A stretch of DNA of 64,000 nucleotides from Blasia pusilla (lineage: Eukaryota), in NCBI GenBank assembly GCA_050084515.1, contig CM114271.1, positions 23,994,001 through 24,058,000 of the forward strand, read 5' to 3'. The notes beneath the pieces were generated by a model. The model saw nothing but the letters and a program-made list of their open reading frames with translations, made no database searches and had not been told where the DNA came from. The stretch's first letter is position 1, and each line of letters begins with the position of its first letter. Positions 7,673 through 46,241 of this stretch are shown piece by piece. The translations under genes were made by a program, and so were the position numbers.

Positions 7673-7689
7673 CTCAAGGGCCAATTGGG

Positions 7690-9845: not shown

Positions 9846-11586
9846 TAAATGTTCTGCAAAATAGTTTTGCAAGTTCTGCAAAATATCTCCAAGAAGGAAA
9901 AACTGCTCTCTCACATTTCCCGGGGCCTCAGCAGGTCATCCTCGACCTATAGAGCCTGTCCTCCACTACTCACGAAGGCACTCTACTAGATCCCGCCGAT
10001 CTATCCTAAAAGACGTGACAACTGTCGTGCGCATACACATCGCTACACAACATACATCGCTGTCATCGAACATACACACAAACACGCACGATCCCATGCT
10101 AACTCATGACATCCAAACAACGAGACAAGAAGTACCAAAATATCTCCAATCGCCCCCCTAACTGGTGGTTAGGTCCCTCTAACTCCAGATAGCAATCTAT
10201 CCCTACCTACCATGACATACATCTCTCGAACGCTAAGAGCAAGAAGGCCGGGTACTCATGTGGCCCCATCGTTAGTCGTCTTCTTGTCATCCATGTCACA
10301 GACACAAGTCGGAATGTAGAACTACCTACTCTATGTACATGTGGGACACATCTATTGTCCTTGAGGAACCCTAGTGAGAGATGACGTCAAACATGCCATA
10401 TGCCATCCTCTCGAACACCCATCACATACTAGCATAGTGGCTGCACCATAGGCGGAACCACACAACCTACGCCGCAAGCCTGCATGAACTATTGCTAAGC
10501 TCAGATCAACTGTACCGTCAATGTTCGGACCATGATATGGCGCACAGTTATGCATATGGTCCTTCCAAACCATACCATCGCGTCCCTCCAATAAGAGAAC
10601 ACCGGATGGTGGTGCGCCCTGCAATCACATCCAACATCGTGGGTGCCGTCTGCTGCTAGTAGACATAGTCTCCTTAATGAAACCTCCGGATAGTAGGTCG
10701 ATAACCACCTCCCCAAATAGTCGTATACCTCAACGTATCCCCATGTTGGGTAATCGCCAAGTTCTCAAACGCCATGGGCATCACTCTCCGAAACAACTCA
10801 GCCCTCTGAGAACATGCTCGCATCCATACATCAGGGTCATCAAGGTTCAACACCTCACCAGTATCTTGACAAATGGCCGTAGGTAAATCTGGCTCTCGGC
10901 CATAAAGCAACAAGTATGGTGAGAAAGACGCTAAGGATGCATGTCTGCTGAATCTGTATCCCATTGCCAACCACGGCAACTGAAGGTCCCAATCTCCTAG
11001 GTGACCTCTCTAGAGGCCATATCTATATAGTCCTCTCTTGACCCTGCACAAACCCGCTCCGATAGTCCATCCGCCTCAAGATGATCTCGCGAAATAGTGC
11101 GGTGGTCGATCAATGCCTGATCACACAAGGCTTGAAACTCCCCACGGAACTCTGTACCCTGGTTTGTCAACACCTCAGCTAGTGCGACCTAATATCTCAG
11201 CACTCGATCTAGGAAGGTATACGCTACTCCCTCACTCGCTTTGTCAGGCAATGCAACCAACTCTATCCATTTCGAGAAGTGCTCGACCATCACCAACACA
11301 TAACGACTATGGCGCTCCGTCAAAGGCAAAGGTCTTGCAAAATCCAAACTCCATCTATAACCTAAACCCATAATCGGAAGTGGATGCAACTATGGAGTCG
11401 GAGCATTGAACGATGCTTAGACTTGATCACACACCATGCATCTGGCAACAAATTGCTGAACGTCAGTCTGCATGCCTCATCCCCAATTTTGAATCTGGAG
11501 CCAGTTGTACGTCCGCTTCACTCCAAAATGACCCAACTCCTCGTGGGCATGACGCACCAAATATGCTCTCTGCAAAGGATGAAGCA
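9845..11586 (-). mobile_element. Gy-1 3' part: integrase, PHD, PPT, LTR segment X (10148-10023) and part of segment Y
   Basis: HEELGHFG, WSLDFA, LCGSAYGAATMLVCDGCSRGWHMAC; purine tract at ~10151-10160 followed by TG at 10148; continues in frame from the fragment ending at 32753 (VVLHPLQRAYLVRHAHEE). Confidence 0.85.
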
Positions 11587-11954
11587 TGTCATGACCATAC
11601 GGATTATGTCGTAGAGTATAGTGTGCTAGTAGAGGCCATACCTTATGTAGGGCCGTAGTGTCTAGGTAGAGATGCGATTTCATACATAGGGTTGGGGGTT
11701 ATTCACTTGAGGGTGACTTTTCCAGTAGGCCCCGCTCTTAGGTTGGAGGATATAAGGTGGAGTGCACTCAAAGAACAATTAGTTCTTTGAGTTGAGCCTG
11801 TTGCGTTGGGAGTTAGCCTTGGTAGTGAGTAGAGCTCTTGGCTATGGTGTTTCCTGCAAGCTTCAACCTAGATTCTCCCATCGTGGAGTGGGTTTGGCTC
11901 AATTGTATGTGATTCTATACGTGTTTTATGACAGTAGGTCTTTCACGGATTTCA
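11587..11954 (+). repeat. Gy-2 5' terminal repeat segment Y (368 bp; TATA/R/U5), starting TGTCATG after the AGCA target duplication
   Basis: Near-identical to the reverse complement of 32860-33227; TATAA at 11751; ends TTTCA and is followed by the putative PBS. Confidence 0.85.
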
Positions 11955-11965
11955 CTCAAAGAACT
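11955..11965 (+). promoter_or_regulatory. Putative self-priming primer-binding site of Gy-2
   Basis: CTCAAAGAACT is the exact reverse complement of AGTTCTTTGAG at 11781-11791, 30 nt after the TATA start. Confidence 0.7.
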
Positions 11966-12124
11966 GAAGTAGATCGATGGTAGCTTCGATTGTAGATCAG
12001 TGGGATCTGGTTAGGGCTGATTGTGTACTCAGCCATGGATGTTCGTGGCTTGTGGCCTATGTTGGAGGTGTGAATCTAGTGAGTGGTTGGTTGGGAAAGA
12101 AGCGCCTTGCTAAGAGCTTTCCAA

Positions 12125-15100
12125 TGTCACATCTGAGTAGCCGATAGGCCGAGATCTATCGTGGATAGGGCGTAGGAGCCAGCGGACTATCTTGAGTGTA
12201 ACTTTGTCCCACGGTGTTGGATGAGGTTGAGGATAGGTCCATTGTGTCAGGAACGTCGTTCTTGACAACTTTCATGTTGAGGTCTTTTACAGCCGGGTGA
12301 CTTGTTGACCAGGTCACCCGCCCTTGGTAACCTGTGCGCGCAGGTTACCAAGGGAAGGGCTATTTTTAGGGGAAGAGCCTTTTGACTCTTCCCAACCCTA
12401 TATAAGAGAGGAAGATGGCTTTCCTAAGCCATCTTTCTCATGTTGGGCCGTTGGAGCACCTCCCTTGTACGTGTGTGAGCTAAGACTAGGGTGCTAGCGT
12501 CCGGATTCCTTGATAGCACAGGGTGGACGAGGCTCGATATGCCGATGTAGATTGAGGAGTGGAGTTTTAGGCCGGGTGTGCCGTTTTTACTACTCTTTAT
12601 TTTTATATGAGAAAGATGTCAGGGGGCTGGTGGGAATTCGTTGTTTGCAGGTAGGCAAGCGAGTTGCCTTGGTCGGGAGCCCCTAGAGACGTGTGTGTGA
12701 CGTTTTGTGTGTCATTTTTCTGTTCGGAAGGCCGTGGGCGGAAGCGCTATCTGTTTTTCTCAGATTTTGCTGGTGCGGATTGATGGGGGATAGCAACAGG
12801 GTGTAGCGCAGGTTGTGTCCCCAGGGAGAAGAGTTAGAGCTTGCAGCCGCCAGGGGGCTGCCAAGTAAAGCGGCCGGTCTAGGGTTAGGCACGCGGCAGG
12901 CGCAAGGGCGGCGATGGGACGGAGCGACGGGCGCCCCCCGCATTTAGGGCCCAAGGGGCTTGCATGGGGCCCCGGGCCCAAGTTCCCCCTCTCCCCCTCC
13001 AACGTGGTAGCACGAACCATAGTCGGTTGGGCAGTTGGTAGCACGGACGAGGTCGGTCAGGCGAACGCGGTGGCGGATGGGCAACGTGATGGCAGGGAGG
13101 ACGTCGACGTGCTGAGTGACCGACAAGTTGGACAGCGGGCGTGACATGATGTTTTTGGGGCGCGACAGGGCGTTGCGAGAGTTGACGATGGAGGGGGTGT
13201 GCATGATGCCGACGGGTTGTCCGCATGACCTGTTGGGAGGATCGCGTGTTGGTCGAGGGGAGTGTTATGTCGCGGAGATTGTCATATCATGTGGAGGAGT
13301 GCATGTTGCGGTGCAGAGTTGAGGGCGTGATCAGGTTACCCATTCGAGTTCCTTTTCCCGCACTTGTCGTGTGTGATTGAGAGTGTTGGGTATCGGGTAG
13401 TAGCTGGTGCTAGATGGGTGCAGTGACGGTGACAAGTGTAGATTCTTTTCATGTGTAGCATGTTGGTGGATATCTGGCGGTTGCGAGTAGGGGTCATGTA
13501 TGACCCGAGAGAGTGTCGCTAGGTTAGGTGAGTCAGTTGGGAGGCTCATGGTGAGCCCGAGTGTTGAGCGTGCGTGAGGCCGGGTATGTCATCACGGGAT
13601 TGATGTTAGCATAGGTGAGCTAGTGAGGCGTGTGGGAGACTCTCGGTGAGTCTGAGTGCTTGAGCGGGTGAGACAGGGTTTGTCATCACGGCATTCTTCC
13701 AGGGTTCGGAAGAACGGGGTAGTGCGAGCAATAGTAGTGGTGTGACACGGAGTGGAGTGAGATACCGAGGAGTTACCAGTGAGGAGCTCCCTCGACATCC
13801 ATCCGTGATTGGATTCATCACTGGACACTGGGTCTGGTGACGAGATCATAGACAGAGACAGTAGTACTTGGCAGGAGATGGACGACATGGGCCATCGGGG
13901 CATGCGTCGTTTCTCAGGTGCAGTGGGCACCATCGACTTAGATGATTTTATCCAGGAGTTCGACACATGGTGCGACTTCCAGGAGATACGGACCTCGACA
14001 CGGTTCAACCCTTTCATGGCATGGAAGGGGTTGTTCCAGCACTTGGAGGGTCCTCTGATGGATGACTACATGGAGTTTCAATCACTATATTCAGTAGAGA
14101 TCGATGCCTGGAGGATGTATTGGGCTCCAGGGTATGTGTCCACTAGTGGTCGCGAGGCATATGATGGGATTGTCAGAGGAGAGAGACCCACACCATCAGC
14201 CCGGAGACTAGATGGAGAGGAGAGCAGTGAGACAGGCCATGTGGCAGAGACCTCTGGTGGTAGAGGGCCACCTAGCTTCAGCCCCACAGTGGAGTTCTTC
14301 CGACAGTTGGGGAAGAGCTACCATGGCGTACACACCGACAAGCTGAAGAGTCTACAGGATTTTCAGCGACGATCAGGTGAGAGTATGAGAGAGGCATTCA
14401 CACGCATGAGGAGGCTGATCATTGCTACGTTTGGAGTGACTGAGGCGCAGTCAGTCTAGTATTGGTATGGGGTTCTGGACCGAGAACTACGGAGGAGAGT
14501 CCGAGATGCGGTGCTGATTCACACAGCGAAGCCCACATTGAAGGTGGTCTTTGAGTTGTCTGAGCGTATTGAGCTCAACATGAGTGAGGAGCAGGTAGTG
14601 ACCGCTGGATTTTAGGGAAGGCACGGAGCTGCGAGCAGCTAGTGTGACTCCAATTTCTACCTCTTACTATATCCCCTAAGATTCATCCTTGACTTCTGGG
14701 AGGAGACTGTTGCTTATCGGCCAGGATGGCGGTCAGGGGACGGCCGGATGAGTCAGTTACCCGTGTAGTTTATGCGGGACGAGATGGTCGATCACGAGGA
14801 GAGTCTGTGACCACGTTGGCAACTTTCACAGGTAGTGTTAGCTGGCCAGGAGAGTTGTTGGAGGGGAACGCACATGCGGAGGATGTCCAAGTAGCGGATA
14901 GTCCCACGGAGAGACAGGCCATGGCGCGTGTCTCTTCCCATGTTGGCGAGACCTCTTCACCATTGTGGGGTACGACTTGAGAGCTACAGAGGAGTGCCGA
15001 CGACCTCGTGGCAGGCGTGGAGTCATGGTTTTATCCCACAGCCGCGAGAGTCACATGGCAATCGAGCTCTTGGAGTGGAGACGATGACCCCACTAGATAC

Positions 15101-18100
15101 CACACCTGTTGTGTGGCATTGCCCAGAGGAGGGTGCTAGGGTGTTAGATCTCTTTGGAGGGATTAGCACCGGATTGGCTGCACTATTGCAGGCGGGCATA
15201 CGGGTGCATCAGTACCTTTATGTGGAGAGAGATGAGATCGCGCGACGAGTATCATTACATCACATGGCGAGATTGGTCCAGAGGTATCCTGAGTTGTTGT
15301 CGGTATCTACAGTACGGGGATACCAGCATACGCTACCCGCCGACATCTCTTTGGTGGGGGCGCAGGATCTGGATAGAGTTGGCACCATTCATTTGGTGAT
15401 TCTTTGGATGGCCATGTCGGGTCATTCATCGGTGGCGAGGATTTGGATTGCAGGATCCCGGGTCGGGATGTTTTGGGAGATCTTTGCGAGTAGTACGACA
15501 ATTGCAGAGAGTCGATATGTTCTCAGTACATTTTGGAGAACGTGCCGTTGTTGGGAGACACTCGTGCACGTGTGATGACGAGTGTACATCAGGTGAGGTC
15601 CTGGTTGGGACCTGCTGTGTTGTTAGATGCAGCGAGAGTTGGGTCACGTGCCCATCATCCATGACTGTGGTGGACGAACCTGATACCATTAGAGGTAGTG
15701 AGTGGAGCATACAATGGAGTCCAGAGAGCACCACATCTCACAGTGGATGCTATTTTGGGCTCAGGGCGTTGATCTCAGGTGGTGACACGCGATGATAGAC
15801 CACCGTTGGCCACGGCCAATAGGGTGGGGGAGTTGAGGGCAGCCTTACCTATGTTGGTGAGCTTCCCAGCATCCCAAGCCTTACGTCAGGGAGGGCCAGG
15901 CATGATTTGGGATGAGGTGACCGGAGCATTGGAGGAGCCTACAGCAGATGAGCGCAAGCGCACCATGGGGTTCACTACCGGTACTACGGCGGTGCCAGGG
16001 ATGACTGAGGCATCACGGAGACAGGTGTTGGGGCAGGCGATGGACCTCAACTGTCTCACATGGATACTCAGCCTAGGTATGGCTGAGCAGAGACGGATGC
16101 GAGTGTCATCCATGCCGTCACATCCACGAGTTGGACCATTTCCTACAAGGTATGTACAGGCATTGGTTGGGGGCGAGACGAGGAGAGATAGGCACCCATA
16201 GACTTCCTGGGACGTCGTTCGAGCAGAGAGTGTGAAGGTGGCTAGATTAGCACATGTTCCTTTTTCGGATGTCAAGCATGGTGTAGGAGGTCAGAGTGGA
16301 GTGGCTGTTGCGAAGGTGGCTAGGGTTGCTACATAGCAACCAAAGCCGGAGGTTGCGTCCTCTCCGAGTGAGGTCACAATGGAGACTTGGGAGCCTGTGA
16401 CAGGTCTCAAGTTGATAGGAGGAGAGCGACGGCAAGTTCACAGGTTTCAAAGAGGGCATGTCAGTTGTTTTGCCTTCATTATGAGAGACTTGGGTACGCT
16501 GAAGGGTCCGGGATACGGATTGAGTTGGCTAGTGATACGCCGATCTTTCGTCGACCCTACAGGTATTTTGATATGGAGCGAGCCTTGATTGAGTGAGTCG
16601 GGGACTTTTGGAGGCGGGACTTGTGGAGTTATCACATGGGGAGTATGCATCCGCCCACGATCATGCCGGCGAAGAAGGAAATGTATGGCAATTGGACGAA
16701 TAGGCGGATGTGTGGAGATTACCGTCCTATCAACCGACAGACGAGGTCAGATCGGTATGCCATGCCTACTCCTGAGGAGATCTTTGATGCGGTAGGGCAT
16801 GCAAAGATCTTCAGTACTTTAGATCTCCGTGTTGGCTATCATTAGCTTCCTATCAGGTTGGAGGACAGGGAGAAGGGGATAGATCGGTTCGGGAGAGATT
16901 GCTTGTATTAGTGGCGGTTCTTACCATTTGGGTTGAAGAACGCGCCTGCGGAGTTTCAGAGAGTGATGGATAGGATTCGGTGGCTTGGATTTTGTGCGAT
17001 GTTACATAGATGATATTCTTATCTTGATTCCACGGTTGAGGAGCATGAGCGACACTTGAGGAGGTGTTTCGGCGATTGCAGTTACATGGACTGAAGTTAC
17101 ATCCAGGCAAGTGCAGATTCTTTCAAGAGCAGATTGAGTACTTGGGACACACCATATACCCGAGTGGGTTAGGCGTTCAGCAGACGAAGGTAGAGGCTAT
17201 TACGCAGATTCCACGCCCTACAGATGTGAGTCGAGTCCGAGCATTTCTTGGACTGGCGAACTTCTATCGACGGTATGTCAAGGGTTTTAGTGCGATCGCA
17301 AAGTCTTTGACCTTGTTGATGAGACTTGATCAGGTTTGGTTGTAGGGAGATGATCAGGAGCGAGCATTTCAGGAGCTCAAGGACAGGTTGACGTCCTCAC
17401 CCATTTTACAGAGACCGGTTAGGGGTCGCCCACTCCAGTTACATACGGATTGGAGCATGTTGGGTCTAGGAGCAGTGCTTACTCAGAGGGATGACGAGGA
17501 GAGGGAGTTCGTTGTGGCTTACGGGAGCCGATCGAACGACATTGCAGAGGCGAAGTACAGCTCCTACGAGGGAGAGTGCTTGGCTATAGTGTGGGCCGTG
17601 GCACATTTTAGGTGCTATTTAGTTGGCAACCCTTTCACACTTATCACTGATCATCAGCCGTTGAGGTGGTTGATGGAGTCCGACAAGCTTACAGGAAAGC
17701 TTGCTAGGTGGGCTCTATTACTACAGGAGTATGAGTTTGAGGTGGTTCATAGGCCAGGTCGGCTGAACCAGGATGCGGATGGGTTGAGTCGTAACCCATG
17801 TCCGAGTCAGAGAGACGACACAGGAGCTCGATGGCACGGAGAGAGTGATGAGGAGATGGTACCCGGTTGGCATGCATCTGCCTATCTTTGTTGGTCGACT
17901 ATGGCGGTCACCCCACGGTGATGACTCCAGTGGTGGGATTGGATGATGAGTCTTTGGATCCGGAGGTTAGTGAGGAGGCGACAGGTGGTCGTGACGACGT
18001 GGAGGTTGTGGAGTTCTTGCGCACTGGCGTCATTGAGAGTACAGTGAGTGCTAGGGAGCGGGATCGGATCCTAGAGAGAGTCAAGAGGTTCAGGTGGGAG

Positions 18101-19341
18101 GGGACTCACATTTTGCGGGTATGGGGAGATGGTAGGATACGAGTGGTACCTCATCCTTCCTAGCGAGCACGTGTAGTGCGACATGCCCATGAGGAGTTGG
18201 GACATTTTGGAGTAAAGCGCATTTACGCCTTACCTGTGTTGATATTGGTGGCCCGACATGCATACTAGGGTACAGCAGTCTGTGGCCAGATGTATGGTAT
18301 GTGACAGAGTGCGAGCATCCTTCAATGCTCCCACTCCGCAGTTACATCCTTTGCCGATTATGGGTTTAGGTTATCGGTGGAGTTTAGACTTTGCGGGACC
18401 TTTGCCATTGACATGGCGTCATCATAGGTACGTGTTGGTTATGGTGGAGCATTTCTCCAAGTGGATAGAGTTGGTGGCACTACCAGACAAGGTTTATGCG
18501 TTTCTAGATCGTGTGCTTAGTCACTTTGGTGCACCGGCAGAGGTGTTGACTGAACAGGGTACCGAGTTCAAGGGAGAGTTTCAGGCCTTGTATGATCAGG
18601 TGTTGATAGATCACCGCACCACGTCCAGAGATCATCCTGAGGCCTAGAGTGATGCCTATGGCCTTTGAGAACTTAGCTATTGCCCAACATAGAGATACAT
18701 TGAGGTACGCGACCATTCGTGGGGGAGGTTATCGTCCAGGGATTAGGAGGTTTCATCCTGAAGATTACGTGTATTTACAGCAGGCGGCACCCACGACGCT
18801 AGATGTCACACTGCAGGCGCCGCGATCCTACGTGTGCGCGAGGTATTACCGACCGGAGTCCTCATGTTGGAGGGACGGGATGGTATGGTTTGGAAGGATC
18901 ATGTGCGCAATTGTGCCCCTTGTCATCTTCCGAACGTAGATGGGACGGTGGATCCGAGCTTGGCAGTGGTACCTGCAGGCTTGAGGTGTATCTTGTGCGG
19001 ATCTGCGAGGGATGCAGCCACCATGTTGGTGTGTGATGGTTGTTCTCGAGGGTGGCATATGTCATGTCTGACCCCCCCCTCTTGATGTGGTACCCACGGG
19101 ACGATGGATGTGTCCGAGATGTGTATAGGGTAGTAGGTCATGTAGAGAGATGTGATATTTTCTATCTGGAGTTGGGGGGATCTAACTGCCAGCTAGGGAG
19201 GCGGTTGTGTGATCTCCATGTATATGTATGAGTTGATTTTTGTACATGTGTGGATCGACCCGTGTGTGGGGAAGATCGGTGTTGTGTGGTGTAGATGTGA
19301 CAAGCGATGTATGCTGTGTAGTGATATGTATACGCACTACA
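12125..19341 (+). mobile_element. Gy-3: DNMT3-PHD Gypsy element nested in the leader of Gy-2; TG...CA ends, CCAA TSD; gag 13809-14620, protease deleted, DNMT ~15120-16100, RT/RH ~16380-17810, IN ~18160-18930, PHD ~18985-19130
   Basis: CCAA|TGTCAC at 12121-12130 and CACTACA|CCAA at 19335-19345; RMCGDYRPIN, FSTLDL, YIDD-like RT motif, HTDWS, WSLDF; PPT at ~19195-19203. Confidence 0.85.
15120..16100 (+). pseudogene. DNMT3-like C5 methyltransferase domain of Gy-3 (frameshifted)
   Basis: RVLDLFGGISTG (motif I), YLYVERD (II), ENV (VI), ERKRTMGF and RRQVLGQAMDL (IX/X). Confidence 0.85.
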
Positions 19342-22300
19342 CCAATGTGCTTTAGATCGCCGGATTTCGTCAAGGGAGTTGGAAGTTATCAAGGATTGAA
19401 GATTTTGGTTCGTGTTCGACGGTTTTCTGATGTGGAGAGCTTGGAGTGTGGAAGCTCTCTTGAAGTTCATCCAGATTGGGTGAGAGGTTCCTATTGCTAC
19501 TTGTATTTTGATCTCATGTGAAGCTATCTGCTTGAGTGTGTGGAGCGTTGCGGATTTCTGCGTGCATGAAACTGGGCGGAAGCGCTGTCGGATTTGCAAT
19601 TCTGGAGGTGTATGGACAACAGGTTTGTCTTATTTTTAGCTCGGAGTATAGAGTTTGGTTGTAGCTGATTTTTTGTGGAGAGATAGCTATGGTGGTCAAT
19701 TGAATTTTGGTTGAAAAAGATTCAATTTTGGTTGAGGATTTGTGGAGTAATTGCTGATTGAAATTTTGCGGACTAGCTCAAGGTCAGCGGATCGAAGGGG
19801 CTGGTTGGTTGGTGACTCGTTCATTGTTGGAGACGCCTATCCCATTGGGGGCGCCCTGGTTGGGCCTCTCTCCATAGAGGAGCATGGCAAAGCATGGCGA
19901 ACGGGGCATTTCTCGAGCATTTTGAGGGTTCGAGGCAACTCGTGGTAGCTCGGGGCAAGTGGGCGTGAGAGGCGGACTAAGGAGCAAGGAGCAAGGAGCA
20001 AGCAAGCAAGCAAGCTTGCTAGCTTGGGCGTGAGGCAGTTTTTGCAGGATTTGTGATTTGAGTGTTGCATAACTGGTAACCCATCTTTGGGCTATTCTTC
20101 CTGGAAGACGCTTAACTGCTGAGTTCTTAACTATGCTAGTGTACACACTGTTGTAGCTCATTTGGTGCTATTCGGAGAGGTGTTAGGCGCCTTATGCATC
20201 TCAGGTTTTTGGTTTATGGACCTCTAGCACATAGTACGGTGTAGCCTCTCCATGCAGGTGATATTTTCAGGTGCTGCGAGTTCGATTAGCACGTCATCGA
20301 CCCGCGGCGGAGTAGCTATTGCGTTAGAATTGTGTGGTGGGTTTTGTGGATTCAGGGGGCGCCACGTTTGGTGGATTTTGTTACCTTGATTTCCATTTGC
20401 GATTGGAGGATTGTCGTTGGACTTCCTATGTTTGGATCCCCTCCATCGTTGCTTCTTGCTCGCGCGCCCATTGTTAGGGTTGACGCTGATTCCCAGAGTA
20501 GTGTTACTCCTGTGTGCTACCAAAGAGTGAGGTGGAGTGATGACCGATGAGACCGTGGGAGGCTTCTTGTGGTGATGACAGGTTAGGTTGCCCACACCCA
20601 TAGCTAGTAGAGCTAGAATAGTATAGCGACATCGACGTCACTTGGTTACTTAGTGGTGATAATTTGGTGGTGGTGCGGCATCGGCGTTGGTCATCACGGA
20701 GCTATCGGATGGTGTGGTTGGGGACCGTGGTGCGGACAATGGTGGTTTCACACGGAGTAGAAAAGGTAGTTGTACACACGGAGTCATGTACGGTTACCTT
20801 TTCCACTTCCGACGGTTGATGAAGAGGAGGACGATGGCGTTCCAAACACCGAGTCTTCTACCTTGTTATCGAGTGTTGCAACTCCATTGATTTGGGACAT
20901 GGACGGGATATATGGGGCCATGAAGGGCCCACGATGATACTCGGGTGCAGTGGGCACCATTGAGTTGGAGGACTTCATGCAGGAGTTTGATACATGGTGT
21001 GATATGCAAATATTGCGGAACGCCACGTTGTTTACATCCTTCTTGGCTTGGAAGGGGTTGTTTCAGCACTTGGAGGGACCACCCATGGATGATTACCATG
21101 AGTTTAGGAAGGACCATGTTGCTGAGATTGAGGCGTGGAGACAATATTGGTCTCCAGGCTATGTGTCTATCACCCATGGTGGTATTGGTAGTAGTGCTCC
21201 TACTATGCCAGCCAGCCCGACGTTGAGTGGTACGAGTACGAGCCGGAGTGGGGGTACCAGTGGAGGTACCCATGGAGGTACCAGTGGGGGTACTAGTGGA
21301 GGTACTAGTGCCCCACCATCGTTCAGCCCAGTTGCAGAGTTCTTCAAGAGGTTGAAGAAGAACTATCAGGGAGTGAAGATAGAGAAGTTGAGGAGTCTTC
21401 AAGAATTTGAGCGGAAGACTGGTGAGAGTCTTCGTGAGGCATACACTCGTATGCGATGCTTGATTTCAGTTACCGAGGGTGTGACTGAGGCTCAGGTAGT
21501 CCAGTTTTGGTATGGGATCTTGGACAAAGAGTTGCGCCGCAGGGTAAGTGATGCTACTCTTATGAGTGATGATTCACCCACATTGACCCATGTGTTTGCT
21601 TTATCTGAGAAGATTGAGCTTAACATGGTGAAGGAGAGAGTGGTGACATCCGTGATTCAAGAGGGGATACAACTACTACTTCTCGTGTGTTCAGCACCCC
21701 ACCTCACAGTCTCGTAGTAGTGGTGGTGGTAGTAGTAGTGGGAGTCGTGGGGGGTACACACGACCTTGGTCAGGTCCTAGAGGGACACTTGCGCAGAGAC
21801 CATTGCATTCATTTGCTGCCATGCAGCAAGGACAGTCATGTTGGACATGTGGAGGTGATCATGTTAGGAAGTTTTGTCCCCAAGAGGATGGAAGACGGAC
21901 TTTGGAGGATGGGCCTCAGTCAGCCCCAACTCAGTGTGATCATTGCGGGAGACCAGGTCATCCTCGAGAGCGTTGCTTTGATCTTCATCCACAGTTGAGA
22001 TCAGGCCGCGGCCGTGGTGGAGTAGCTCCGAGAGGCTGAGGTGGTAGGGGTGGTAGAGGTGGACCAATGGTTGGAGAGCCTACGGTGGCTACCCCTACCA
22101 CTACGACAAAGTCAGCTATGGCTGCCAGGATTGAGCAGTTGGAGCAAAAGTTGGCTACTATGGCTGGTATCCAGCATAGATCAGGTTCGGGAGCAAGGGC
22201 TTCCACCTCTTATGGAGGGGATGATCTCTCTTATATGGCGAGTGCAGCACAGGTTGAGGCATTAGGTGTAGTTACGAGAGGAGCCACTCGAGCGTCAGAG

Positions 22301-23580
22301 CCACGTGGTGCTACTGTGGAGTTGGACCCACAGAGGGGTGAGGCAAGCTAGGCTTCCCCAGTCATTCTTGCTGTCTGAAGTGCTTAGGACTCCATCCATG
22401 GTTCCTACGCAGCCTATTGAGCCGATAGTGGGGACTGAGGCATATACATCGCGTGTAGTAGACACGGATGTAACATCCAGTGCAGTATTGCGGATGGCAA
22501 CTTCAGTGTTGGGATCCCCATTGTTTTCAGCCACGGAGCTGATGGCTTTAGGAGTTAACTTAGCTCCTGTATTTCAGCTAGCAGCCACGTTGTGTGAACG
22601 TGGGGGTTATTCTTACTACACGTCTTTGAGGTGGATGAGGGTGTTGCGGTGGAGCGACCCTCTATGTCAGTGTAGCATTGAGTACCGGTGCTACTTTGGC
22701 AGGCAAAGCGGCGGCGAAGATGGATCGATACCCGCCCGGCCAGCCATTGATCGTGAGAGGCTTACACTGGTGTATGTATGTTGGACAACCGAGTGGGATA
22801 TTCTGATTGGTGAGTCCTACAGGACAGGTGTATAGACCAGATAGAGTCTTGTTAGACTCTGGTGCCCAACCTTTGATGTTGGGAAAGGCGGCATGTATTG
22901 GTTTGGGTATTCGGAGGTCAGAGCTTGAGCCTTGCCCATTCCAGATTCAAACATCACTTGGAGGAGCCAATGATAGGTCTCAATTCATGACACGGGAGAA
23001 GTTTTCTATACAGTCTAGACCAGATCATGCGACTGATAGCTCCCGGTTGGGAGTATCTATGGTAGTCACATCAGCCGAGTCGTATGATGTACTAGTTGGA
23101 GGAGCAGTATTGTACCCGATGGGTTTTCAGATGGATTACTGGACTGAGACAACGTCTTATAGACCTGGTTGGTAGTCCGGGGATGGACGTATGAGCCAAG
23201 TTCCCGTGAGATTTATTTATGGGGCTCGACCAGGAGGGTCTTCCCCAACAGTGTTAGCATCTGTGGCTGGTTTTAGTGGAGTAGTCACTTGGCCAGGAGA
23301 CTTTTTGGAGGGTAATGTTTCTGCTATGGATTCTCCTGTGCATGAGGAGGTAGAGGAGGTCCCTATTTTTGCAGTAGTGGCATCCTCATCGTTGGATATG
23401 CCACTTTGGAGTTCAGGCGGTGCACTACGGCAGGAGGCTGATCGCCTAGTGCAGGAGGCTTGGTGTGAGGCTGTTATACCTCACGAGGAAGAGGAGGCCC
23501 CACGACGGACTCCTACTTCTGGTCCAGTTGGGTTATCTTCTTTGGATACTACACCCATTGTATGGCAGTATCCGCCGGAG

Positions 23581-24550
23581 GGCATTTGTGTGTTAGATCT
23601 CTTCGGTGGGATTAGCATTGGTTTGGCTGTAGTGTTGCAGGCCGGTATTCTGTCTTGGAGATACGTGTATGTGGAGCGAGATGAGACGGCCGAAGAGAGT
23701 CTCATCCCGACATATTGGTCGATTCTTTGTGGAGATATCCTGAGTTGTTGCCGCCATCAGCTATTTGTGGGTACCAGCGTGCTTTGCCGTCACACATTGC
23801 ATTGTTGGGGGCGCAGGACCTTGAGAGGGTTGGTCCTTTGGATTTGGTGATTGCTGGATGGCCATGTCAGGGTCATAGACGTGCAGGTCGTGGTGAGGGA
23901 TTACACGACCCTAGGTCTCGATTGTTTTGGGAGATGTTACGGAAGTTACGACATCTTCAGGTTCATCAGGCACGTGCTCCAGCTTACATTTTGGAGAATG
24001 TTCCATTGTTGGGTGACACTCGGACCCGGATGATGGCAAGTATTCATGAGGTGCGGTCTTGGATTGGACCAGCGGTGTTGTTGGATGCATTGCGAGTTGG
24101 CTGGCGTGCACATCGTCCACGCTTGTGGTGGACAAACTTGTTGCCTAGGGAGGTTCTACGTCGAGGATATGATGCAGTGCAGCGGGATCCTTGCCTTACA
24201 GTGGATAGTATCTTGGATACTGGGCGAATTTCTCAGGTGGTGAGGGTTATTGATCGGTCACCCATTGTAGTGGTGAACCGTGTGGGCTAGCCTAGGATGG
24301 CACTACCCACATTTGTGAGTTTTCCCTCGTCACATGCATACAGGGAAGGTGGTCCCGGGCTTGTATGGGATTCTCATGTGCGGCGAGTTGGTGGAGCCTA
24401 ACGCGATGAGAGAGAGCGTGCGATGGGATTTGCTCGTGGTGTGGCGGTTGCTTCCATTTCTGAGGCTTCACGACGTCATGTGTTGGGTCAGGCCATGGAC
24501 CTGAATTGTTTGACTTGGATTTTGAGTCTTGGTATGGCCGAGCAGCGTCG
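23581..24550 (+). pseudogene. DNMT3-like C5 methyltransferase domain of Gy-2 (best-preserved copy)
   Basis: VLDLFGGI (I, 23590), GPLDLVIAGWPCQG (IV, catalytic C at 23865), YILENV (VI), AHRPRLWWTNL (VIII), ERAMGF, RRHVLGQAMDL (X); DNMT3-type wording of motifs VIII-X. Confidence 0.9.
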
Positions 24551-26689
24551 ACTTTGGACTATGTCTGTGGATCTTCCACCCCTTGTAATGAGCTCGATGG
24601 CTATCGGGACGGTAGAGGCATCGGCCGGGGGCGAGGAGAGTAGTATTTTGCATCCTTGGAGTAAATGGGATGTAATGGCTGGGCATGTGGAGTTGGTTGC
24701 TCATGCTGGTGGAGGAGTTATTTGCTCAAATGAAAGTGTAGCTAAGGGTGTACCATCTTTAAGGGGGTTGCGTAGCAGCCAATGGCATCTTCCTCTCCCT
24801 CTAGTGTGCCAATGGAGGAGACTTGGGAGCCATTACTTGGGCTCAAGCTTACGGGAGGTGAGAAACGACGCTTGACACAGTTCCTACGTGCTTATAGGAG
24901 TTGTTTTGCCTTTAGCATGAAGGAGTTGGGTTCTCTGGTTGGACCCGGTATACGGATTGATTTGGCTAGTGATACGCCAATCTTCCGTCGTCCCTACCGA
25001 TATAGTGATATGGAGAGGGACCTGATTCAGAGTAGGACGTTGGACCTTTTGGAGGCTGGATTAGTGGAGTTGTCGCATGGAGAGTATGCATCAGCCACTT
25101 TCATGCCTGCTAAAAAGGATATGCATGGCAACTACACGGATAGGCGGATGTGTGGAGATTACCGTCCTATCAATCGGCAAACCAAGGCCGATAGGTATGC
25201 CATGCCTACACCTGAGGAGATCTTTGATGTGGTGGGACAGGCAAAGATTTTCAGTACTTTGGATCTTTGGCGAGATACCATCAATTGCCGATTCGGAGAG
25301 TGACAAGGCCAAGACAATGCATTTTGGGGTGTCAACTCTCATGGCAAGGATTGTTTGTACGGTGGAAATTCTTACCCTTTGGGTTGAAGAATGCACTGCC
25401 GAGTTTCAAAGAGTGATGGGCGGGATCCTAGCAGGTTGGATTTTGTTCGGTGTTACATTGATGATATCTTGGTGTTCAAGAACACGGTGGAGGAGCATCG
25501 ATACATTTGCAGATGGTGTTTGAGCGGTTGAAAGCTCATGGTCTACGTTTGCATCAGGAAAGTGTAAGTTCTTCCATGAGGATGTTGAGTACTTGGGTCA
25601 TGTGATCTATCCAGGTGGTTTGGGAGTTCAAAGCAAGCAAAGGTGGAGGCTATTGCACTTATTCGCGTCCGGTAGATGTGAGTAGAGTTCGAGCATTCAT
25701 GGGATTGGCGAACTACTATCGGAGGTATGTGAAGGGATTTAGTGCTATGGCAAAGCCTTTGAACCAATTGCTGAAATCAGATCAAGAGTGGCTTTGGGGA
25801 GATGATCGGGAGAGAGCTTTTGGGGAGCTTAAGGCCTAGTTGGTGGCGGCGCCTATCTTGAGGAGACCTATCGAGGGCGCCATTTCAGATTACACACCGA
25901 TTGGAGTAGGTTGGGACTTGAGCGGTGTTGACACAACATGATGATGAGCACATGGAGTTTGTGGTGGCCTATGCAAGTCGTTCGAATAATGCAATGAGTC
26001 GCGCTATAGTTCATATGAGGGAGAGTGCTTGGCAAGAGTGTGGGTTGTGGCACACTTTAGGTGTTACTTGTTTGGCACACAGATTTACCCTTGTTATTGA
26101 TCACCGGCCGCTCAAGTGGTTGATGGAGTCGGACAAGCTTACGGGGAAGCTTGCACGGTGGGCTCTTATCTTACAGAGTATGACTTCCGGGTGGTACATA
26201 GACCTGGAGTTGCCAACCTTGATCTTTGATGGGTTGAGTAGGAACCCATGTACTAGCCAAGAGGATACAACTGGGGCTAGATGGCATGGCGAGGTTGATG
26301 AGGAGATGGTGCCAGGTTGGCATGCATCCGCCTTTTTATGTTGGTTAGGGGTGGACTCTAGTATGGAGGACCACATGATATCTTACTCTAGTCAGAGGGT
26401 AGATGGCCAGCCTTCAGATCCTAAGGTTGGAGATGGTGGCACGGATCAGCGTGATATTCATGATGATGCGTTGGTGTTGGAGTTCCTACGGACCAGTAGG
26501 GTGCCAGGCATAGTGAGTGCCAAGGAGCGAGACCGTGTTCTTCAACGTGCTAAGAGGTATCGATTGGAGGGAACACATATTATCCGCATGTGGGAGGATG
26601 GTAGAGTACGAGTAGTGCCACATTTGGCTCAGAGAGAGCACATTGTGCGACATGCCCATGAGGAGTTGGGACATTTTGGGGTAAAGCGT

Positions 26690-27263
26690 ACGTATAGCTT
26701 ACTCCTTGGCGATATTGGTGGCGTGGCATGCATACTCAGTGCAGTAGATTGGTGTCACGTTGTATGGTTTGTGACCGGGTGAGGGCATCATTTAATGCCC
26801 CTACACCAAAATTACACCCCTTGCCTATTATGGGGTTGGGTTACCGTTGGAGTGTGGACTTTGCGGGACCGTTACCATTGACTGTACGACATCATCGATA
26901 TGTGTTGGTGATGGTGGAGCACTTCTCCAAGTGGATTGAGTTGGTGGCATTACCGGACAAGGCAAGTGAGGGAACGGCGTATGCGTTTCTGGATAGAGTG
27001 CTTAGTCATTTTGGTGCACCAGCTGAAGTGCTGACCGACCAGGGTGAGTTTCAGGGTGAGTTTCGTTCGTCCTATAGCTTACTCCTTGGTCAGTATTGGT
27101 GGTGTGGCATGCATACTCAGGTGCAGCAGTTGGTGTCATGTTGTATGGTTTGTGACCGGGTGAGGGTATCATTCAATGCCCCTACACCAAAATTACACCC
27201 CTTGCCTATTATGGGGTTGGGTTACCGTTGGAGTGTGGACTTTGCGGGACCGTTACCGTTGAC
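26690..27263 (+). repeat. Internal duplication of ~190 bp of integrase (26690-26885 repeated at ~27070-27263)
   Basis: YSLLLG...MHTQ...CDRVR.SFNAPTPKLHPLPIMGLGYRWSVDFAGPLPLT occurs twice, ~380 bp apart. Confidence 0.85.
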
Positions 27264-27264
27264 C

Positions 27265-29644: not shown

Positions 29645-29647
29645 CAG

Positions 29648-29728
29648 AAGTGGGAAAACTCACAAACGTGGGAAAGCGCAGACCCTTGTTACCACAGTCA
29701 ACGGTGGTCGATCATCGTGCCTCACTGC
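29648..29728 (-). mobile_element. Short Gypsy DNMT piece belonging to Gy-5, separated by the inversion
   Basis: VRHDDRPPLTVV...FPTFVSFPTS continues into YKEAGPGLVWDDQ at 44688. Confidence 0.75.
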
Positions 29729-29729
29729 C

Positions 29730-32700
29730 AGCCAGATCGTGCAGCAATATCTATATATGGAGATTGATGATGTTGCGAGGCGCGCTTCACTTCACCATGT
29801 GGCGCTATCACGCCTCCATTTTCTCGACTTGTTGTGTGCGTCCGCCATTCAGGGTTACCAGAGTTCCCTACCGAGGGACATTTCATTGTTGGGGGCGTAG
29901 GACTTGGAGCAGGTAGGGACCATAGACTTGGTCATTGCTGGTTGGCCGTGTCAGGGCCAATCGAGTGTTGGACGAGATAGCGGGTTAGCTCACACTCGGT
30001 CCAGGTTGTTTTTGGAGATGATGCCGGATCTTGCAACCTTTACATGAGCATCACTCTCGTTCTCCAACATACATTTTGGAAAATGTGCCAATTTTGGGCG
30101 ATTCGAGGTCCCGTGTGGTGACGAGTGCACATCAGGTGCGCGCATGGATCGGCCCAACACATGGATCGGCCCAACAGTGTTGTTAGATGCGGCGAGTGTG
30201 GGTTCATGAGCACATTGCCCGCGTCTTTGGTGGACCAACTTGGTACCACATGAGGTATTGCGGAGGGCTTATGCAAGAGTGGAGCGTCCCTCCAATTTGT
30301 TGGTGGATTCTATATTGGATCCGGGCCGTCGATCACAGGTAGTGAGGCACAATGATTGACCATCGTTGACTGTGGTCAACAAGATTGGCATACCACGAGC
30401 CACCTTTCCCATATTGGTGAGTTTTCCCGCTTCCTATGCATTTAAGGAGGCCGGATTTGGCTTGGTTTGGGATGACCAGGTATAGAGGTTGGTGGAGCCC
30501 AACGCCGATGAGCGAGAGCGAGCAATGGGATTCCCCACAAGAGTGACGGCAATAGCGTCACTATCGGAGGTAGCACGACGTCATGTCTTGGGTCAGGCGA
30601 TGGACCTAAACTACTTGACATGGATTTTCAGCTTAGGAGTAGTTGAGCAACGTTGTTTGAGGATGCGACATATCACAGTTGTTGCGTTGGTGAGCCCCAT
30701 GCCTACCGAGACGGTTGAGGCAGTGGATAGGGTCGAGACTCGAGGAGATTGACACACCAGGAGTGATCGGGAGAGACATCCTTGGACTTCTTGGGATGTT
30801 TTGCATCTCGCTCAATGTACACCAGGAGATGATAGCCACAACATTGAGCGTGGTTCCGGGTATTGCACATGGAGATGAGAGTTATGTTGTTCGAGACAGG
30901 GTTGCACCATAGCAACCACCGGCATCCGTGCCGAAGAGTCCTATTGTAGTCACGATGGAGACTTGGGAGCCAAATATGGGCCCTGAGTTGACAAGAGGAG
31001 AGCAGCGTTGGAAACACCAATTCCTTAGGAGTTATAGAAGCTGTTTTGCATTTAGTATCCATGATTTGGGTACGCTGAAGGGTCCAGGGATCCGCATTGA
31101 GTTGTCGAGTGACACGCCGATCTTCCGACGATCCGAAAGATACAGTGACATGGAGAGGGCTCTCACTCAAAGTAGGAGCTAGGACTTGCTTGGAGCAGGA
31201 CTAGTGGAGATGTCGCATGGAGAGTATGCATCTGCCACTATCATGCCCACCAAGAAGGATGTGCATGGCAACTGGACGGATAGGCGAATGTGTGGAGATT
31301 ACGGACCTATCAATTGGTAGACAAAGTCCAATAGGTATGCCATGCCCACTCCTGAGGAGATCTTTGATACGATTGGGCATGCAAATGTCTTCAGTTCATT
31401 GGATTTGTGAGCCGGATACCATCAATTGCCTATCAGATTGGAGGATAGGCAACAAACGGTATTTTGGGGCATCGATCCTCACGGGAAGGATTTTTTGTAC
31501 CAATGGCGGATCTTACCATTTGGGTTAAAGAACGCCCCGTCTGAATTTCAAAGGGTCATGGATAGGATCTTGGCAGGTCTGCATTTTGCTAGGTGTTATA
31601 TTGATGACATCGTAGTCTCTAGCGCCACGGTTGAGGAGCATGAGCGACATCTAGAGGAGGTGTTTCGACGATTGCAATAACATGGGCTGAAGCTACATCT
31701 AGGCAAGTGCAAATTCTTCTACGACAAGATTGATTATTTGGGTCATACGATATATCTTGGGGGCCTTGGTGTGCAGCAAGCGAAGGTAGAGGCTATTTCA
31801 CGCATTCCACGCCCTACAGATGTGAGTCGAGTTCGTGCATTCATGGGATTGGCAAACTTCTATCGATGGTACGTCAAGGGTTTCAGTTTGATTGCAAAGC
31901 CGGTAACCTTGATGACCAAGGTGGATCAGGAATGGCATTGGGGGGATGAGCAAGAGAGAGCATTTTAGATGCTCAAGGAAGAATTGACGTCCGCACCCAT
32001 ATTGAGGAGACCGATCACGGGACGTCCTTTCCAATTACATACTGATTGGAGCATGTTGGGGCTTGGAGCTATGCTTACTCAACATGATGATGATGGTAGA
32101 GAGTTTGTGGTGGCTTATGCTAGTCGCTCGAATAATGTTGTAGAGGTGAAGTATAGCTCGTATGAGGGTGAGTGCTTGGTTGTAATGTGGGCTGTCGCAC
32201 ATTTCAGATGTTATCTATTCGGCAATCCCTTTACCATCATTACTGATCTTCAGCCACTTAAGTGGTTGATAGAGTCCGACAAGCTTATAGGGAAGCTTGC
32301 GAGATGGGCTCTTTTGTTGCAAGATTATGACTTCCAGGTGGTGCATAGACCTGGGATGCTCAACTAGAATGCAGATGGTTTGAGACGTAATCCATGCTCG
32401 AGTCAGCGAGATGCGACTAGAGCTCGTTGGCATGGTGAGATTGATGAGGAGTTGGTGCCAAGATGGCGTGCGTCAACCTATTTGGGCTTGTTGGCTATGG
32501 AAAGCCAAATTACTGAGACTTCGATGGCGAGGTCTAATGGAGAGTCCTTAGATGCAGAGGCTAGTGAGGAGACAACAGGTGGCCGAGACATTCACGACGA
32601 TGGAGTAGTCTTGGAGTACCTGCGTACTAGCAGCGTCGCGAGCGCAATAGGTGCTAGAGAGCGGGATCGGATCCTACAACAAGCCAAAGAGTTCCGGTGG

Positions 32701-32753
32701 TAGGGCATAAATGTGCTGCGAGTGTGGGAGGATGGTAGAGTGTGTGTAGTGCT
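29730..32753 (+). mobile_element. Gy-1 middle part: DNMT (from motif II), RT, RNase H, start of integrase
   Basis: QYLYMEIDD, IAGWPCQG, ENV, ERERAMGF, LPFGLKNAP, CYIDDI, HTDWS; ends at TGCT (= AGCA TSD of Gy-2). Confidence 0.88.
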
Positions 32754-33333
32754 TGTCGTGCGAATCCACATCGTGATACAACATACATCGCTGACATACC
32801 ATACTCACATACATACATAACATAGACGAGAGCATCCACAAACACAAGTGTACCACAACTGAAATCCGTGAAAGACCTACTGTCATAAAACACGTATAGA
32901 ATCACATACAATCGAGCCAAACCCACTCCACGATGGGAGAATCTAGGTCGAAGCTTGCGGGAAACACCATAGCCAAGAGCTCTACTCACTACCAAGGCTA
33001 ACTCCCAACGCAATAGGCTCAACTCAAAGAACTAATTGTTCTTTGAGTGCACTCCACCTTATATCCTCCAACCTAAGAGCGGGCCCTACTAGAAAAGTCA
33101 CCCTCAACTGAGTAACCCCCAACCCTATGTATGAAATCGCGTCTCTACCTAGACACTGCAGCCCTACATAAGGTATGGCCTCTAGTAGCACACTATACTC
33201 TACGACATAATCCGTATGGTCATAACAGCTGTCGTGCGAATCCACATCGTCATACAACATAAATCGCTAACATACCATACTCACATACATACATAACATA
33301 GACGAGAGCATCCACAAACACAAGTGTACCACA
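32754..33333 (-). repeat. Gy-2 3' terminal repeats X-gc-Y-gt-X (X = 33333-33230 and 32857-32754, 104 bp each; Y = 33227-32860)
   Basis: Two near-identical X copies flank Y; the PPT AGGGGGCG directly precedes the first X; the element ends CACGACA|AGCA. Confidence 0.88.
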
Positions 33334-33409
33334 ACTCGCCCCCCTAACTCGCGGTTAGGTCCCTCTAACTCCCAGGTAGCCCTATACATCTACTACATGC
33401 TATACACCT

Positions 33410-34530
33410 TCTTGGGTGCACGAATCAGAAGGCCGGGTGCTAGGTTGCCCCATCGTTAGTCGCATATCTGTAATCCATATCATGCAAAGATCAAGTCATC
33501 TACCTCTCCTAAGTACATCGAGGATAAACCCACCTTCCAGCAGGAACAACATCCATACGTGGAGTCAAATACATCATGTGCCAACCCCTAGAACACCGAT
33601 CACACACCAACATACGGGCTGCGTTACCAGCAGACCCACACAACATGCACCTCAAGCTAGCACGTATCATGGCTAAGCTTGGGTCAACAGTACCATCCAC
33701 ATTTGGAAGATGACATGGCGCACAATTACGCACATGGTCCTTCCAAACAACTCCATCACAATCCTCCAACATAAGAACTCCATAAGATAACACCTCGCAC
33801 ACTCGTAAAAAGTAGTGCGGTGTGCCATCATATCCAACGTTGTCTGTGCAATCTGCTGCAAATAGACATAGTCCCCCACATGGAACCTATGAATTGATGG
33901 TCGATAACCTCCACCCCGAATGGTTGCATACCGCAACGTATCCCTATGTTGAGCAATGGCAAGATTCTCAAAGGCTGTTGGCATAACTCTCCGAAAGAGC
34001 TCTTCCCGCTGAGAACACACTCTCATCCACATCTCTGGGTCATCAAGGTTCACCACCTCACTAGACTCCCGACAAATTGCTGCTGGCAAGTCTGGATCTC
34101 GGCCGTATAACAGAAAATAAGGTGAGAAGGAAGCCAAGGATGCTTGGCGACTGAACCTATACCCTATGGCTAACCATGGCAACTGAATATCCCAATCTCC
34201 AAGATGCCCCTTCTGTAGGCCATACTTGCGCAATGCCCTCTTCACCATCTGAACCACACGCTCAGCCAAACCATCCGCCTCTGGATGATCTCGAGATGTG
34301 GTCCAATGATCAATCAACGCCTTGTCACACAAGACCTGAAACTCACCCTGAAACTCTGTACCCTGGTCGGTCAGCACTTGAGCTGGTGCACCAAAATGAC
34401 TAAGCACTCTATCAAGAAACGCATACGTCGTTCCCTCACTTGCCTTGTCACGTAATGCCACCAACTCAATCCACTTGGAGAAGTGCACCACCATCACCAA
34501 CACATATCAATGATGTCGTACAGTCAACGG
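33410..34530 (-). mobile_element. Gy-2 integrase C-terminal half, SH3-like tail and PHD finger (inverted relative to its 5' half)
   Basis: Resumes exactly at PLTVRHH..VLVMV; LTDQG...GLAER; CMLCGSAGNAARMLVCDRCSRGWHM...WVYPRC. Confidence 0.9.
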
Positions 34531-46232: not shown

Positions 46233-46241
46233 ATGCTCGCT

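Follow-up and report, generated by a model that had tools for sequence, protein, structure and literature searches.

A stated rule of retroelement biology pairs the DDE integrase with long terminal repeats (LTRs) and the tyrosine recombinase with inverted or split repeats (introduction of PMC8557442). Split direct repeats of the order A1-internal-B1-A2-B2 belong to elements encoding a tyrosine recombinase and generating no target-site duplication (TSD), as described in PMC4157794 and PMC8969392. Here we describe a Ty3/Gypsy-type family found in 64,000 nucleotides of Blasia pusilla DNA (assembly GCA_050084515.1, contig CM114271.1, positions 23,994,001 to 24,058,000; this whole stretch is called the window and its positions are counted from its first letter). 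Copies of this family combine split direct repeats with TG...CA termini, 4-bp TSDs and a DDE integrase. On balance, and with somewhat more confidence than doubt, we consider an insertion of this family to be a circularly permuted two-LTR complementary DNA (cDNA) opened at an inner CA-NN-TG site of the LTR proximal to the primer binding site (PBS).

The closest described element is KnitGypsy-Dnmt3 of Klebsormidium nitens, which carries a Dnmt3-type domain in its Gypsy polyprotein (de Mendoza et al. 2018, PMC5890265). The legend to Figure 4c of that paper gives it DIRS-like repeats (A-coding-B-A-B) together with a Gypsy domain composition; its main text holds nothing on termini, TSDs, PBS, polypurine tract (PPT), priming or mechanism, on which the supplements may say more. 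An earlier note on the window had known of no such arrangement in Ty3/Gypsy elements, a claim that this legend contradicts. Our literature search found no Gypsy element with split direct repeats described beyond KnitGypsy-Dnmt3 (PMC5890265). As far as searches show, the integrase-type ends and TSDs at the split, the exact LTR-LTR joint in every copy, the putative self-priming site of Tf1 type with its covariation, the spread over diverged families in bryophytes and the very high copy number are unpublished. Two further mechanisms are of relevance here. Self-priming is a known alternative to priming by tRNA (PMC2864245), and integrase cleavage of a palindromic LTR-LTR junction has been reported for prototype foamy virus (PFV; PMC1180852) and HIV-1 (PMC1905944).

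Anatomy and insertion limits of the window copies

In the following, X designates the segment that follows the PPT and Y the segment that precedes the PBS. Window coordinates and motifs were checked by sequence reading, self-BLAST and exact motif look-up. One copy, Gy-2, contains a second element in its leader (Gy-3) and an inverted segment; once the inversion is undone, it reads AGCA-Y-PBS-internal-PPT-X-gc-Y-X-AGCA. Its parts are the following:

11583..11586, + strand: left TSD AGCA; the site is empty in Gy-0 and Gy-3
11587..11953, + strand: 5' Y (367 bp), starting TGTCATG, with a TATA box at 11748-11757 and a putative RNA start and self-primer AGTTCTTTGAGT at 11781-11792
11954..11965, + strand: PBS ACTCAAAGAACT, predicted to be self-priming, 12/12 complementary to 11781-11792
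19346..27263, + strand: leader and degraded coding region, with a C5 DNA-methylase domain in 23715-24290, reverse transcriptase (RT), RNase H, H2C2 and rve core
33350..34530, - strand: 3' part of the integrase (rve), within the inverted segment 27264-34530
33337..33349, - strand: PPT AGTTAGGGGGGCG, from sequence reading and motif look-up
33230..33336, - strand: first X (107 bp), starting AGTTGTGG and ending CACGACA, then the spacer gc at 33228-33229
32861..33227, - strand: second Y, starting TGTTATG, 96.5% identical to 11587-11953
32754..32860, - strand: second X, joined directly to the end of Y, 97% identical to the first X, ending CACGACA beside the right TSD
32750..32753: right TSD, reading TGCT on the + strand and AGCA on the - strand

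Gy-2 is inserted into another copy of the family, Gy-1. After removal of one AGCA, the Gy-1 flanks are contiguous across the Gy-2 site by comparison with Gy-0 and Gy-3 (18135/18151 match 32738/11582), so that the insertion can be delimited without recourse to the TSD.

Along with the inversion 27264-34530, a stretch of 190-372 bp of integrase sequence has been duplicated (26693-27064, 27073-27263, 34338-34530); the integrase of Gy-2 is broken at 27064 and the duplicated piece then follows at 27073-27263. The inversion postdates the insertion of Gy-2 and is real in the assembly; the reads are uninformative at the breakpoint and the flank beyond 34530 is repetitive. Directly outside each of the two integrase breakpoints of the inversion (27064-27330 and 34338-34600) is a GA-rich tract, similar on the two sides (GAGGAGAGGAAGAGAGGAAGAGAGGAGAG).

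Gy-3, situated within the leader of Gy-2, displays a shorter form:

12125..19341, + strand: Gy-3, Y-internal-X form, flanked by CCAA at 12121-12124 and 19342-19345
12125..12606, + strand: Y of Gy-3
12607..12618, + strand: PBS, complementary to 12430-12441
19191..19203, + strand: PPT
19204..19341, + strand: X of Gy-3

Its ends read CCAA/TGTCAC at 12121-12130 and CACTACA/CCAA at 19335-19345, and self-comparison of the window revealed no terminal direct repeat in this element. X is short, and its length varies among the window copies (107 bp in Gy-2, 128 bp in Gy-1 and 138 bp in Gy-3).

These split-repeat boundaries and the TSDs AGCA and CCAA had been proposed in the earlier note, along with the quasi-palindromes CACGACA-gc-TGTTATG (33218-33236) and CACGACA-gt-TGTCACG (10014-10029), and all were recovered upon inspection. 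The same is true of its argument that a PPT abutting X and a PBS abutting Y predict an LTR of the form X+Y. Its view of Y-gt-X as a circle joint stands in so far as the sequence is exactly that to be expected of joined cDNA termini; the gt itself belongs to X, and the joint has no spacer.

Recurrence of the split layout in related loci

Metagenome contigs were scanned with the integrase open reading frame (ORF) of Gy-2. Of the 51 loci identified, about 30 have a protein identity of 74-86%; the loci were analysed by self-comparison and by annotation with X, Y and leader probes. The layout Y-PBS-internal-PPT-X-NN-Y-X was encountered again in these contigs, which come from independent assemblies. 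Ends of the type PPT-X-NN-Y-X/flank were found on the 3' side of L002, L004 (whose flank is shared by L005, L006 and L030), L008, L009 (identical to L011) and L016. With Gy-2 this amounts to six independent complete X-Y-X 3' ends, to which L024/L025 adds one with a truncated last X. PPT-X/flank ends are present in L017 and L019, and contig ends cut L012, L023, L027 and L028 on the 3' side. Among the resolvable 3' ends, window copies included, X-Y-X was observed in 7/10, X/flank in 3/10 and X-Y/flank in 0/10. All six resolvable 5' ends read flank/Y-PBS (Gy-2, Gy-3, L004/L030, L021, L023 and L024/L025), and L013/L014 carries a truncated Y on that side. None of these six has an X upstream of the 5' Y, and an ordinary X+Y LTR was found at the outer end of none of the 6 5' ends and none of the 10 3' ends.

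The locus L004/L030 is contiguous with both ends present and bears the TSD CATA. Each of the three complete elements thus has a 4-bp TSD (AGCA in Gy-2, CCAA in Gy-3, CATA in L004/L030), and without exception the inner X/Y boundary is where integrated ends and TSDs are located. Y opens and X closes with conserved 7-mers that are mutually inverted (TGTCATG/CACGACA), the 2-bp spacer between them varies (gc, gt, ac, at, tc), and a G-rich PPT abuts X in all copies. In every copy, X starts with AGTTGTGG after the PPT (..GGGGGGTG) as well as after Y (..CATTTTC). Because X starts identically in both positions, the Y/X joint is exact, and it is so in 7/7 copies. The X1/X2 and Y1/Y2 pairs are 3-15% diverged, which marks the copies as old. 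More distant families (L031, L033, L037/L038 and L049, at 34-58% integrase identity) have, downstream of the integrase, short X..X repeats spaced by about 300-370 bp, and L049 reads PPT-X-CACGATA-gt-TGTCAAG-Y-X.

The split layout is normal for the family and does not stem from misassembly. The earlier note had proposed testing whether boundaries and 4-bp TSDs lie always at the X/Y junction, and counting the two forms of the element. They do lie there, neither of the observations that the note named as refuting (ordinary X+Y LTRs in most members, an assembly artefact) was made, and the count stands at seven X-Y-X against three X-only 3' ends.

Other ways of dividing the repeats were considered and rejected. 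X is not a complete short LTR, no X being found at any 5' end. Y is not a whole LTR with X as a part of the target, the empty site being devoid of X. The LTR is not Y followed by X, every 5' Y directly preceding the PBS.

A putative self-priming site

Immediately downstream of the 5' Y, 12 nt can pair without mismatch with a 12-nt site located within Y, which begins about 30 nt past the TATA box. The pairs are as follows:

Gy-2: PBS ACTCAAAGAACT at 11954-11965, primer site AGTTCTTTGAGT at 11781-11792
Gy-3: PBS ATGAGAAAGATG at 12607-12618, primer site CATCTTTCTCAT at 12430-12441
L030: PBS and primer site as in Gy-2
L024/L025: PBS ATTCGAAGAACT, primer site AGTTCTTCGAAT

These four pairs represent three covarying versions, each complementary at 12/12 positions, and minimum free energy RNA folds from the putative transcript start to the PBS close on the 12-nt stem. 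With the start of the transcript placed by its spacing from the TATA box, we infer that the PBS is a self-priming site of the Tf1 type. A tRNA-type PBS was rejected: none is present, and the self-primer covaries.

The PBS sequence is present a second time shortly before the presumed start, where it forms a hairpin with the self-primer, CTCAAAGAAC-AATT-AGTTCTTTGAG in Gy-2 (11764-11792). In Gy-3, positions 12411-12441 have a different sequence and the same hairpin fold. In the 3' Y, this hairpin could mask the primer sequence.

Coding capacity and class membership

The ORFs of the window match the Pfam domains RNase H, H2C2 and rve, in a Gypsy-type Pol order RT - RNase H - integrase. The same order and Gypsy-type domains are found in the ORFs of L004 and in the long relatives P0142, P0143 and P0146, and an intact relative displays successively a gag zinc knuckle, a protease, a C5 DNA-methyltransferase-like domain, RT, RNase H, H2C2 and an rve integrase. 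In the window, a C5 DNA-methylase domain (PF00145, E=1e-8) is predicted from a profile match in 23715-24290 (+ strand), upstream of RT. The corresponding match is weak in L004 (6230-7630) and clear in relatives from Marchantia, ENA and Closterium. Among the long relatives, the DNA methyltransferase (DNMT) precedes RT in P0142 and is placed between RNase H and integrase in P0146. A PHD finger is located at the C-terminus of the integrase in the window (about 19032-19058) and in L004 (9878-10999), P0143 and P0146. Marchantia polymorpha, Sphagnum fallax and Closterium supply the named relatives that combine DNMT, RT, RNase H and integrase, and many gene models of Marchantia polymorpha are relatives of the family; no Klebsormidium protein is among the matches listed.

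No tyrosine recombinase (Phage_integrase, PF00589) was detected in open frames of at least 100 amino acids in the window, in L004 or in the three long relatives. This agrees, together with the rve and H2C2 domains, with the DDE-integrase element first proposed. The family shares with Ty3/Gypsy elements the TG...CA inverted termini, the 4-bp TSD, a PBS beside the 5' repeat and a PPT beside the 3' repeat. It departs from them in lacking identical long terminal repeats, since Y at the left end and X at the right end are unrelated sequences. From the PAT and Ngaro groups of DIRS elements, it has the split repeats A1-internal-B1-A2-B2, in Gy-2 and five independent metagenome loci, and neither the tyrosine recombinase nor the absence of TSDs.

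Abundance in sequencing reads

Two raw whole-genome shotgun (WGS) runs (X18 and X19), sampled at about 1 in 100 of each run, and two contig sets were aligned to 32200-34700 at a likeness of at least 88%. Read depth over this region reached 900-2,200 at the ~1/100 sampling of a WGS run: the family is very abundant in its host. Reads that leave the end of Y into the PBS and leader instead of X numbered 744 in X18 and 719 in X19; such reads are expected if each element has one Y-PBS and one Y-X junction. The read joints listed are accounted for by cross-mapping between the two X copies, by a single nested insertion (33745 to 32754) and by infrequent contig variants of the X-NN-Y junction.

Differences between copies over 32200-34700 are mostly C>T and G>A (445 of ~740 variable places in run X18). 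This excess is what deamination of methylated cytosines would be expected to leave in a silenced family.

Proposed replication and integration route

Since the PPT abuts X and the PBS abuts Y, reverse transcription is predicted to produce an LTR of the form X-NN-Y. Within the 5' Y, transcription would begin about 30 nt past the TATA box; the RNA would pair through its first 12 nt with the PBS directly after Y in the manner of Tf1, and plus-strand synthesis would be primed at the PPT directly before X. Ordinary reverse transcription would then yield X-NN-Y repeats whose outer ends, AGTTGTGG... and ...TTTTC, differ from the TG and CA of integrase substrates. The integrase-type ends, TGTCATG at the start of Y and CACGACA at the end of X, would instead be placed back to back, 2 bp apart, inside the LTR. 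Opening of the DNA at the CA-NN-TG of the PBS-proximal LTR would leave the exact Y/X joint near the right end and, after insertion, a 4-bp TSD. An insertion of the longer form has two X and two Y, as a two-LTR cDNA would, in permuted order. The joint itself may be formed in a 2-LTR circle that is cut afterwards, or a replication intermediate might be cut in its first double-stranded LTR and have its outer ends joined later.

DDE integration is indicated by the termini, by the 4-bp TSDs and by the rve integrase that the elements encode. Cleavage of the palindromic LTR junction in PFV and HIV-1 provides a precedent for the 2-LTR-circle route, and a closed 2-LTR circle is a plausible but unproven substrate. 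A circle has two equivalent inner sites, and copies reading Y-X-NN-Y-internal-X would therefore also be expected. An integrase acting on an intermediate in which only the PBS-proximal LTR is double-stranded would account for the single permutation.

Several points weigh against an insertion opened at the inner site of a two-LTR cDNA. A symmetric cut of the circle predicts Y-X-NN-Y-internal-X equally often, and this form was seen at 0/6 5' ends (0.5^6 = 0.016). The symmetric cut is accordingly somewhat disfavoured, and the asymmetry suggests that only the site of the PBS-proximal LTR is used, or that the route is a different one. The exactness of the Y/X joint in 7/7 copies surpasses that of usual end joining and would be in keeping with templating. 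The repeat pairs offer a weak test of whether both copies are remade from one template at each cycle, the copies being old and the informative sites possibly recurrent transitions: Y1 and Y2 group as sisters in L023 and L024 and not in L004, and X1 and X2 are nearest neighbours only in L016. The best-supported loose read ends are subfamily differences with no Y start or X end among them, and hence give no count of termini. Finally, sequence is our basis for deducing the start and the poly(A) site of the transcript, the ends of the cDNA and the integration substrate.

The Y-internal-X copies (Gy-3, L017 and L019) would be cut at both LTRs, or derive from a 1-LTR circle, or be X-X recombinants. 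A further copy of X stands alone in the window:

51563..51690, - strand: solitary X of 128 bp, 89-91% identical to that of Gy-1; both its start and its end are exact

Neither Y nor PPT nor TSD accompanies it. This single case would fit a terminal X released from a linear cDNA cut at the inner site. The solitary X sits between two copies of a direct repeat of about 45 bp (ATGTGTGCACTCTCACATGTCTCTCTC...), in the flanks 51408-51450 and 51725-51760.

The foremost alternative, which we regard as rather unlikely, places the permutation in replication. Reverse transcription itself would yield a linear Y-internal-X-NN-Y-X cDNA, a route already proposed for the split-direct-repeat elements PAT, Ngaro and TOC, and the integrase would process and join ordinary linear TG...CA ends; the transcript would run from inside the 5' Y into the last X, and the inner X-NN-Y would template the missing left part of Y and the missing right part of X. 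This would explain the single permutation (6/6 5' ends) and, the joint being copied from RNA, the exact Y/X of 7/7 copies. X ends in a YA dinucleotide (Y standing here for a pyrimidine), which could be a plant poly(A) cleavage site. The conserved PBS after the 5' Y and the PPT before the first X speak against it in that they canonically give X-NN-Y LTRs: we could derive from their positions no series of strand transfers that copies the terminal X, and there is neither a second primer site after the last X nor a purine tract before Y. The order A-internal-B-A-B is usual in tyrosine-recombinase elements (PMC4157794, PMC8969392) and is also drawn in the KnitGypsy-Dnmt3 legend; this shared order points to replication, and not to the integration enzyme, as its cause. 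The solitary X, with its exact PPT-side start, requires on the contrary a molecule ending at the start of X.

We give very little credence to a secondary origin of the layout, by which ordinary LTR elements would have been rearranged after insertion (through unequal recombination, inversion or tandem copies) or misassembled. The window does consist of degraded, nested and partly inverted elements, Gy-2 is interrupted by an inversion with duplicated integrase and Gy-3 may derive from the longer form by X-X recombination. Yet the layout recurs base for base in five further independent loci of other assemblies, one element is contiguous with both ends and its TSD (L004/L030), the insertion is bounded by the start of Y and the end of X according to both the TSDs and the paralogous empty site, and no ordinary copy appears among 6 5' ends and 10 3' ends. 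Equally improbable is that these are true DIRS/PAT-type elements integrated by a tyrosine recombinase with the integrase domain as a passenger: they have split direct repeats and a methyltransferase-type domain, DIRS elements carrying a Dam-like one, but no Phage_integrase occurs in the scanned frames of the window, L004 and the three long relatives, RNase H and integrase are of Ty3/Gypsy Pfam types, the methylase is of the C5 type and not Dam-like, and 4-bp TSDs with TG...CA termini contrast with DIRS elements described as lacking TSDs (PMC8969392).

Opening of a two-LTR cDNA at the inner site of the PBS-proximal LTR thus remains our preferred reading. A broader proposal, toward which we are tentative and lean slightly to the negative, is that an entire ancient streptophyte Gypsy clade integrates by a route so far undescribed in LTR retrotransposons, with a DDE integrase that ignores the cDNA termini and cuts an internal CA-NN-TG of the PBS-proximal LTR in a circle or a replication intermediate. 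If true, each insertion would be a permuted genome retaining the LTR-LTR joint, and split direct repeats would stem from a logic of replication and integration evolved independently of the tyrosine recombinase.

Context of the nest and neighbouring remnants

The window is eukaryotic, with 47% G+C and zero N, and the nearest named matches of its retroelement proteins are from Marchantia, Calypogeia and Sphagnum at 65-79% identity. The region 7.7-34.5 kb consists of nested, degraded and partly inverted Gypsy-type elements. Besides Gy-2 and Gy-3, it includes:

7688..9842, - strand: Gy-0, a truncated Gy-1 paralogue, 87-90% identical, with the unoccupied Gy-2 target site near 9042
9843..11582, - strand: 3' part of Gy-1, the host element of Gy-2, with integrase, PPT 10151-10163, X 10023-10150, spacer gt 10021-10022 and Y 9843-10020
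29739..32749, + strand: 5' part of Gy-1, with RT, RNase H and integrase start, now inverted relative to the 3' part

Gy-1 reads PPT-X-CACGACA-gt-TGTCACG-Y, and its Y stops at 178 bp, abutting Gy-0. At this point (9842/9843), near the hairpin and presumed start, Y runs straight into the RT region of Gy-0. The two stand head to tail with an internal deletion, and may have arisen as a tandem or through a template switch. The interval from the inversion breakpoint to the 5' truncation of Gy-1 contains an ORF of 466 amino acids (27669-29069, - strand) with a weak SWIM zinc-finger match (E=0.003); this ORF may be a DNA-transposon remnant. A further copy of the family at 44691-46879 is 83% identical to Gy-1 over 1.5 kb and contains a head-to-head junction near 46233/46240, with its upstream segment attached inverted. 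Two arrays of tandem repeats of about 64-67 bp occupy 39690-40176 and 41738-42343.

Implications

This family breaks the textbook tie of split repeats to the tyrosine recombinase and of identical LTRs to the DDE integrase. Its clean integrase signatures make it a tractable case for studying both the origin of split repeats and the use of internal abutted ends by an integrase, and its relatives in Marchantia polymorpha render the question testable in a model plant. LTR finders that seek paired terminal repeats would be expected to report Y...Y only, losing the last X, and to miss the Y-internal-X copies; if so, repeat annotation and insertion ages in bryophyte genomes would be distorted. The element-borne DNMT and PHD domains constitute a link to host chromatin.

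Comparison with known systems

KnitGypsy-Dnmt3 resembles the present family in its Gypsy domains, its C5 DNMT inside Pol, its A-coding-B-A-B repeats and its streptophyte host, a likeness drawn from the published description. The two differ in the liverwort-like host and in the PHD finger following the integrase here.

Tf1 uses a self-priming mechanism with an 11-nt complementarity and has ordinary identical LTRs at both ends. As in the Tf1/sushi elements, a PBS located directly after the 5' repeat would pair with the predicted 5' end of the transcript (over 12 nt here), and there is no tRNA-type PBS. Unlike in these elements, a second copy of the PBS sequence precedes the presumed start here and forms a hairpin with the primer sequence.

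In the circle junctions of IS3 and IS30 type, abutted transposon ends are the substrate of a DDE enzyme. The 2-LTR junctions of PFV and HIV-1 likewise offer abutted ends with a short spacer (CA-NN-TG) to such an enzyme. In these viruses, the palindrome is the joint of the LTR ends and a side route, whereas in the present family the palindrome lies inside each LTR, and the Y/X cDNA joint is non-palindromic and kept in the insertion.

PAT, Ngaro and TOC1 share with the family the order A1-internal-B1-A2-B2, in which the inner B1-A2 corresponds to the joined outer ends. Those elements possess a tyrosine recombinase and have no TSD, whereas the elements described here have a DDE integrase, TG...CA termini, 4-bp TSDs and RT and RNase H of the Gypsy type.

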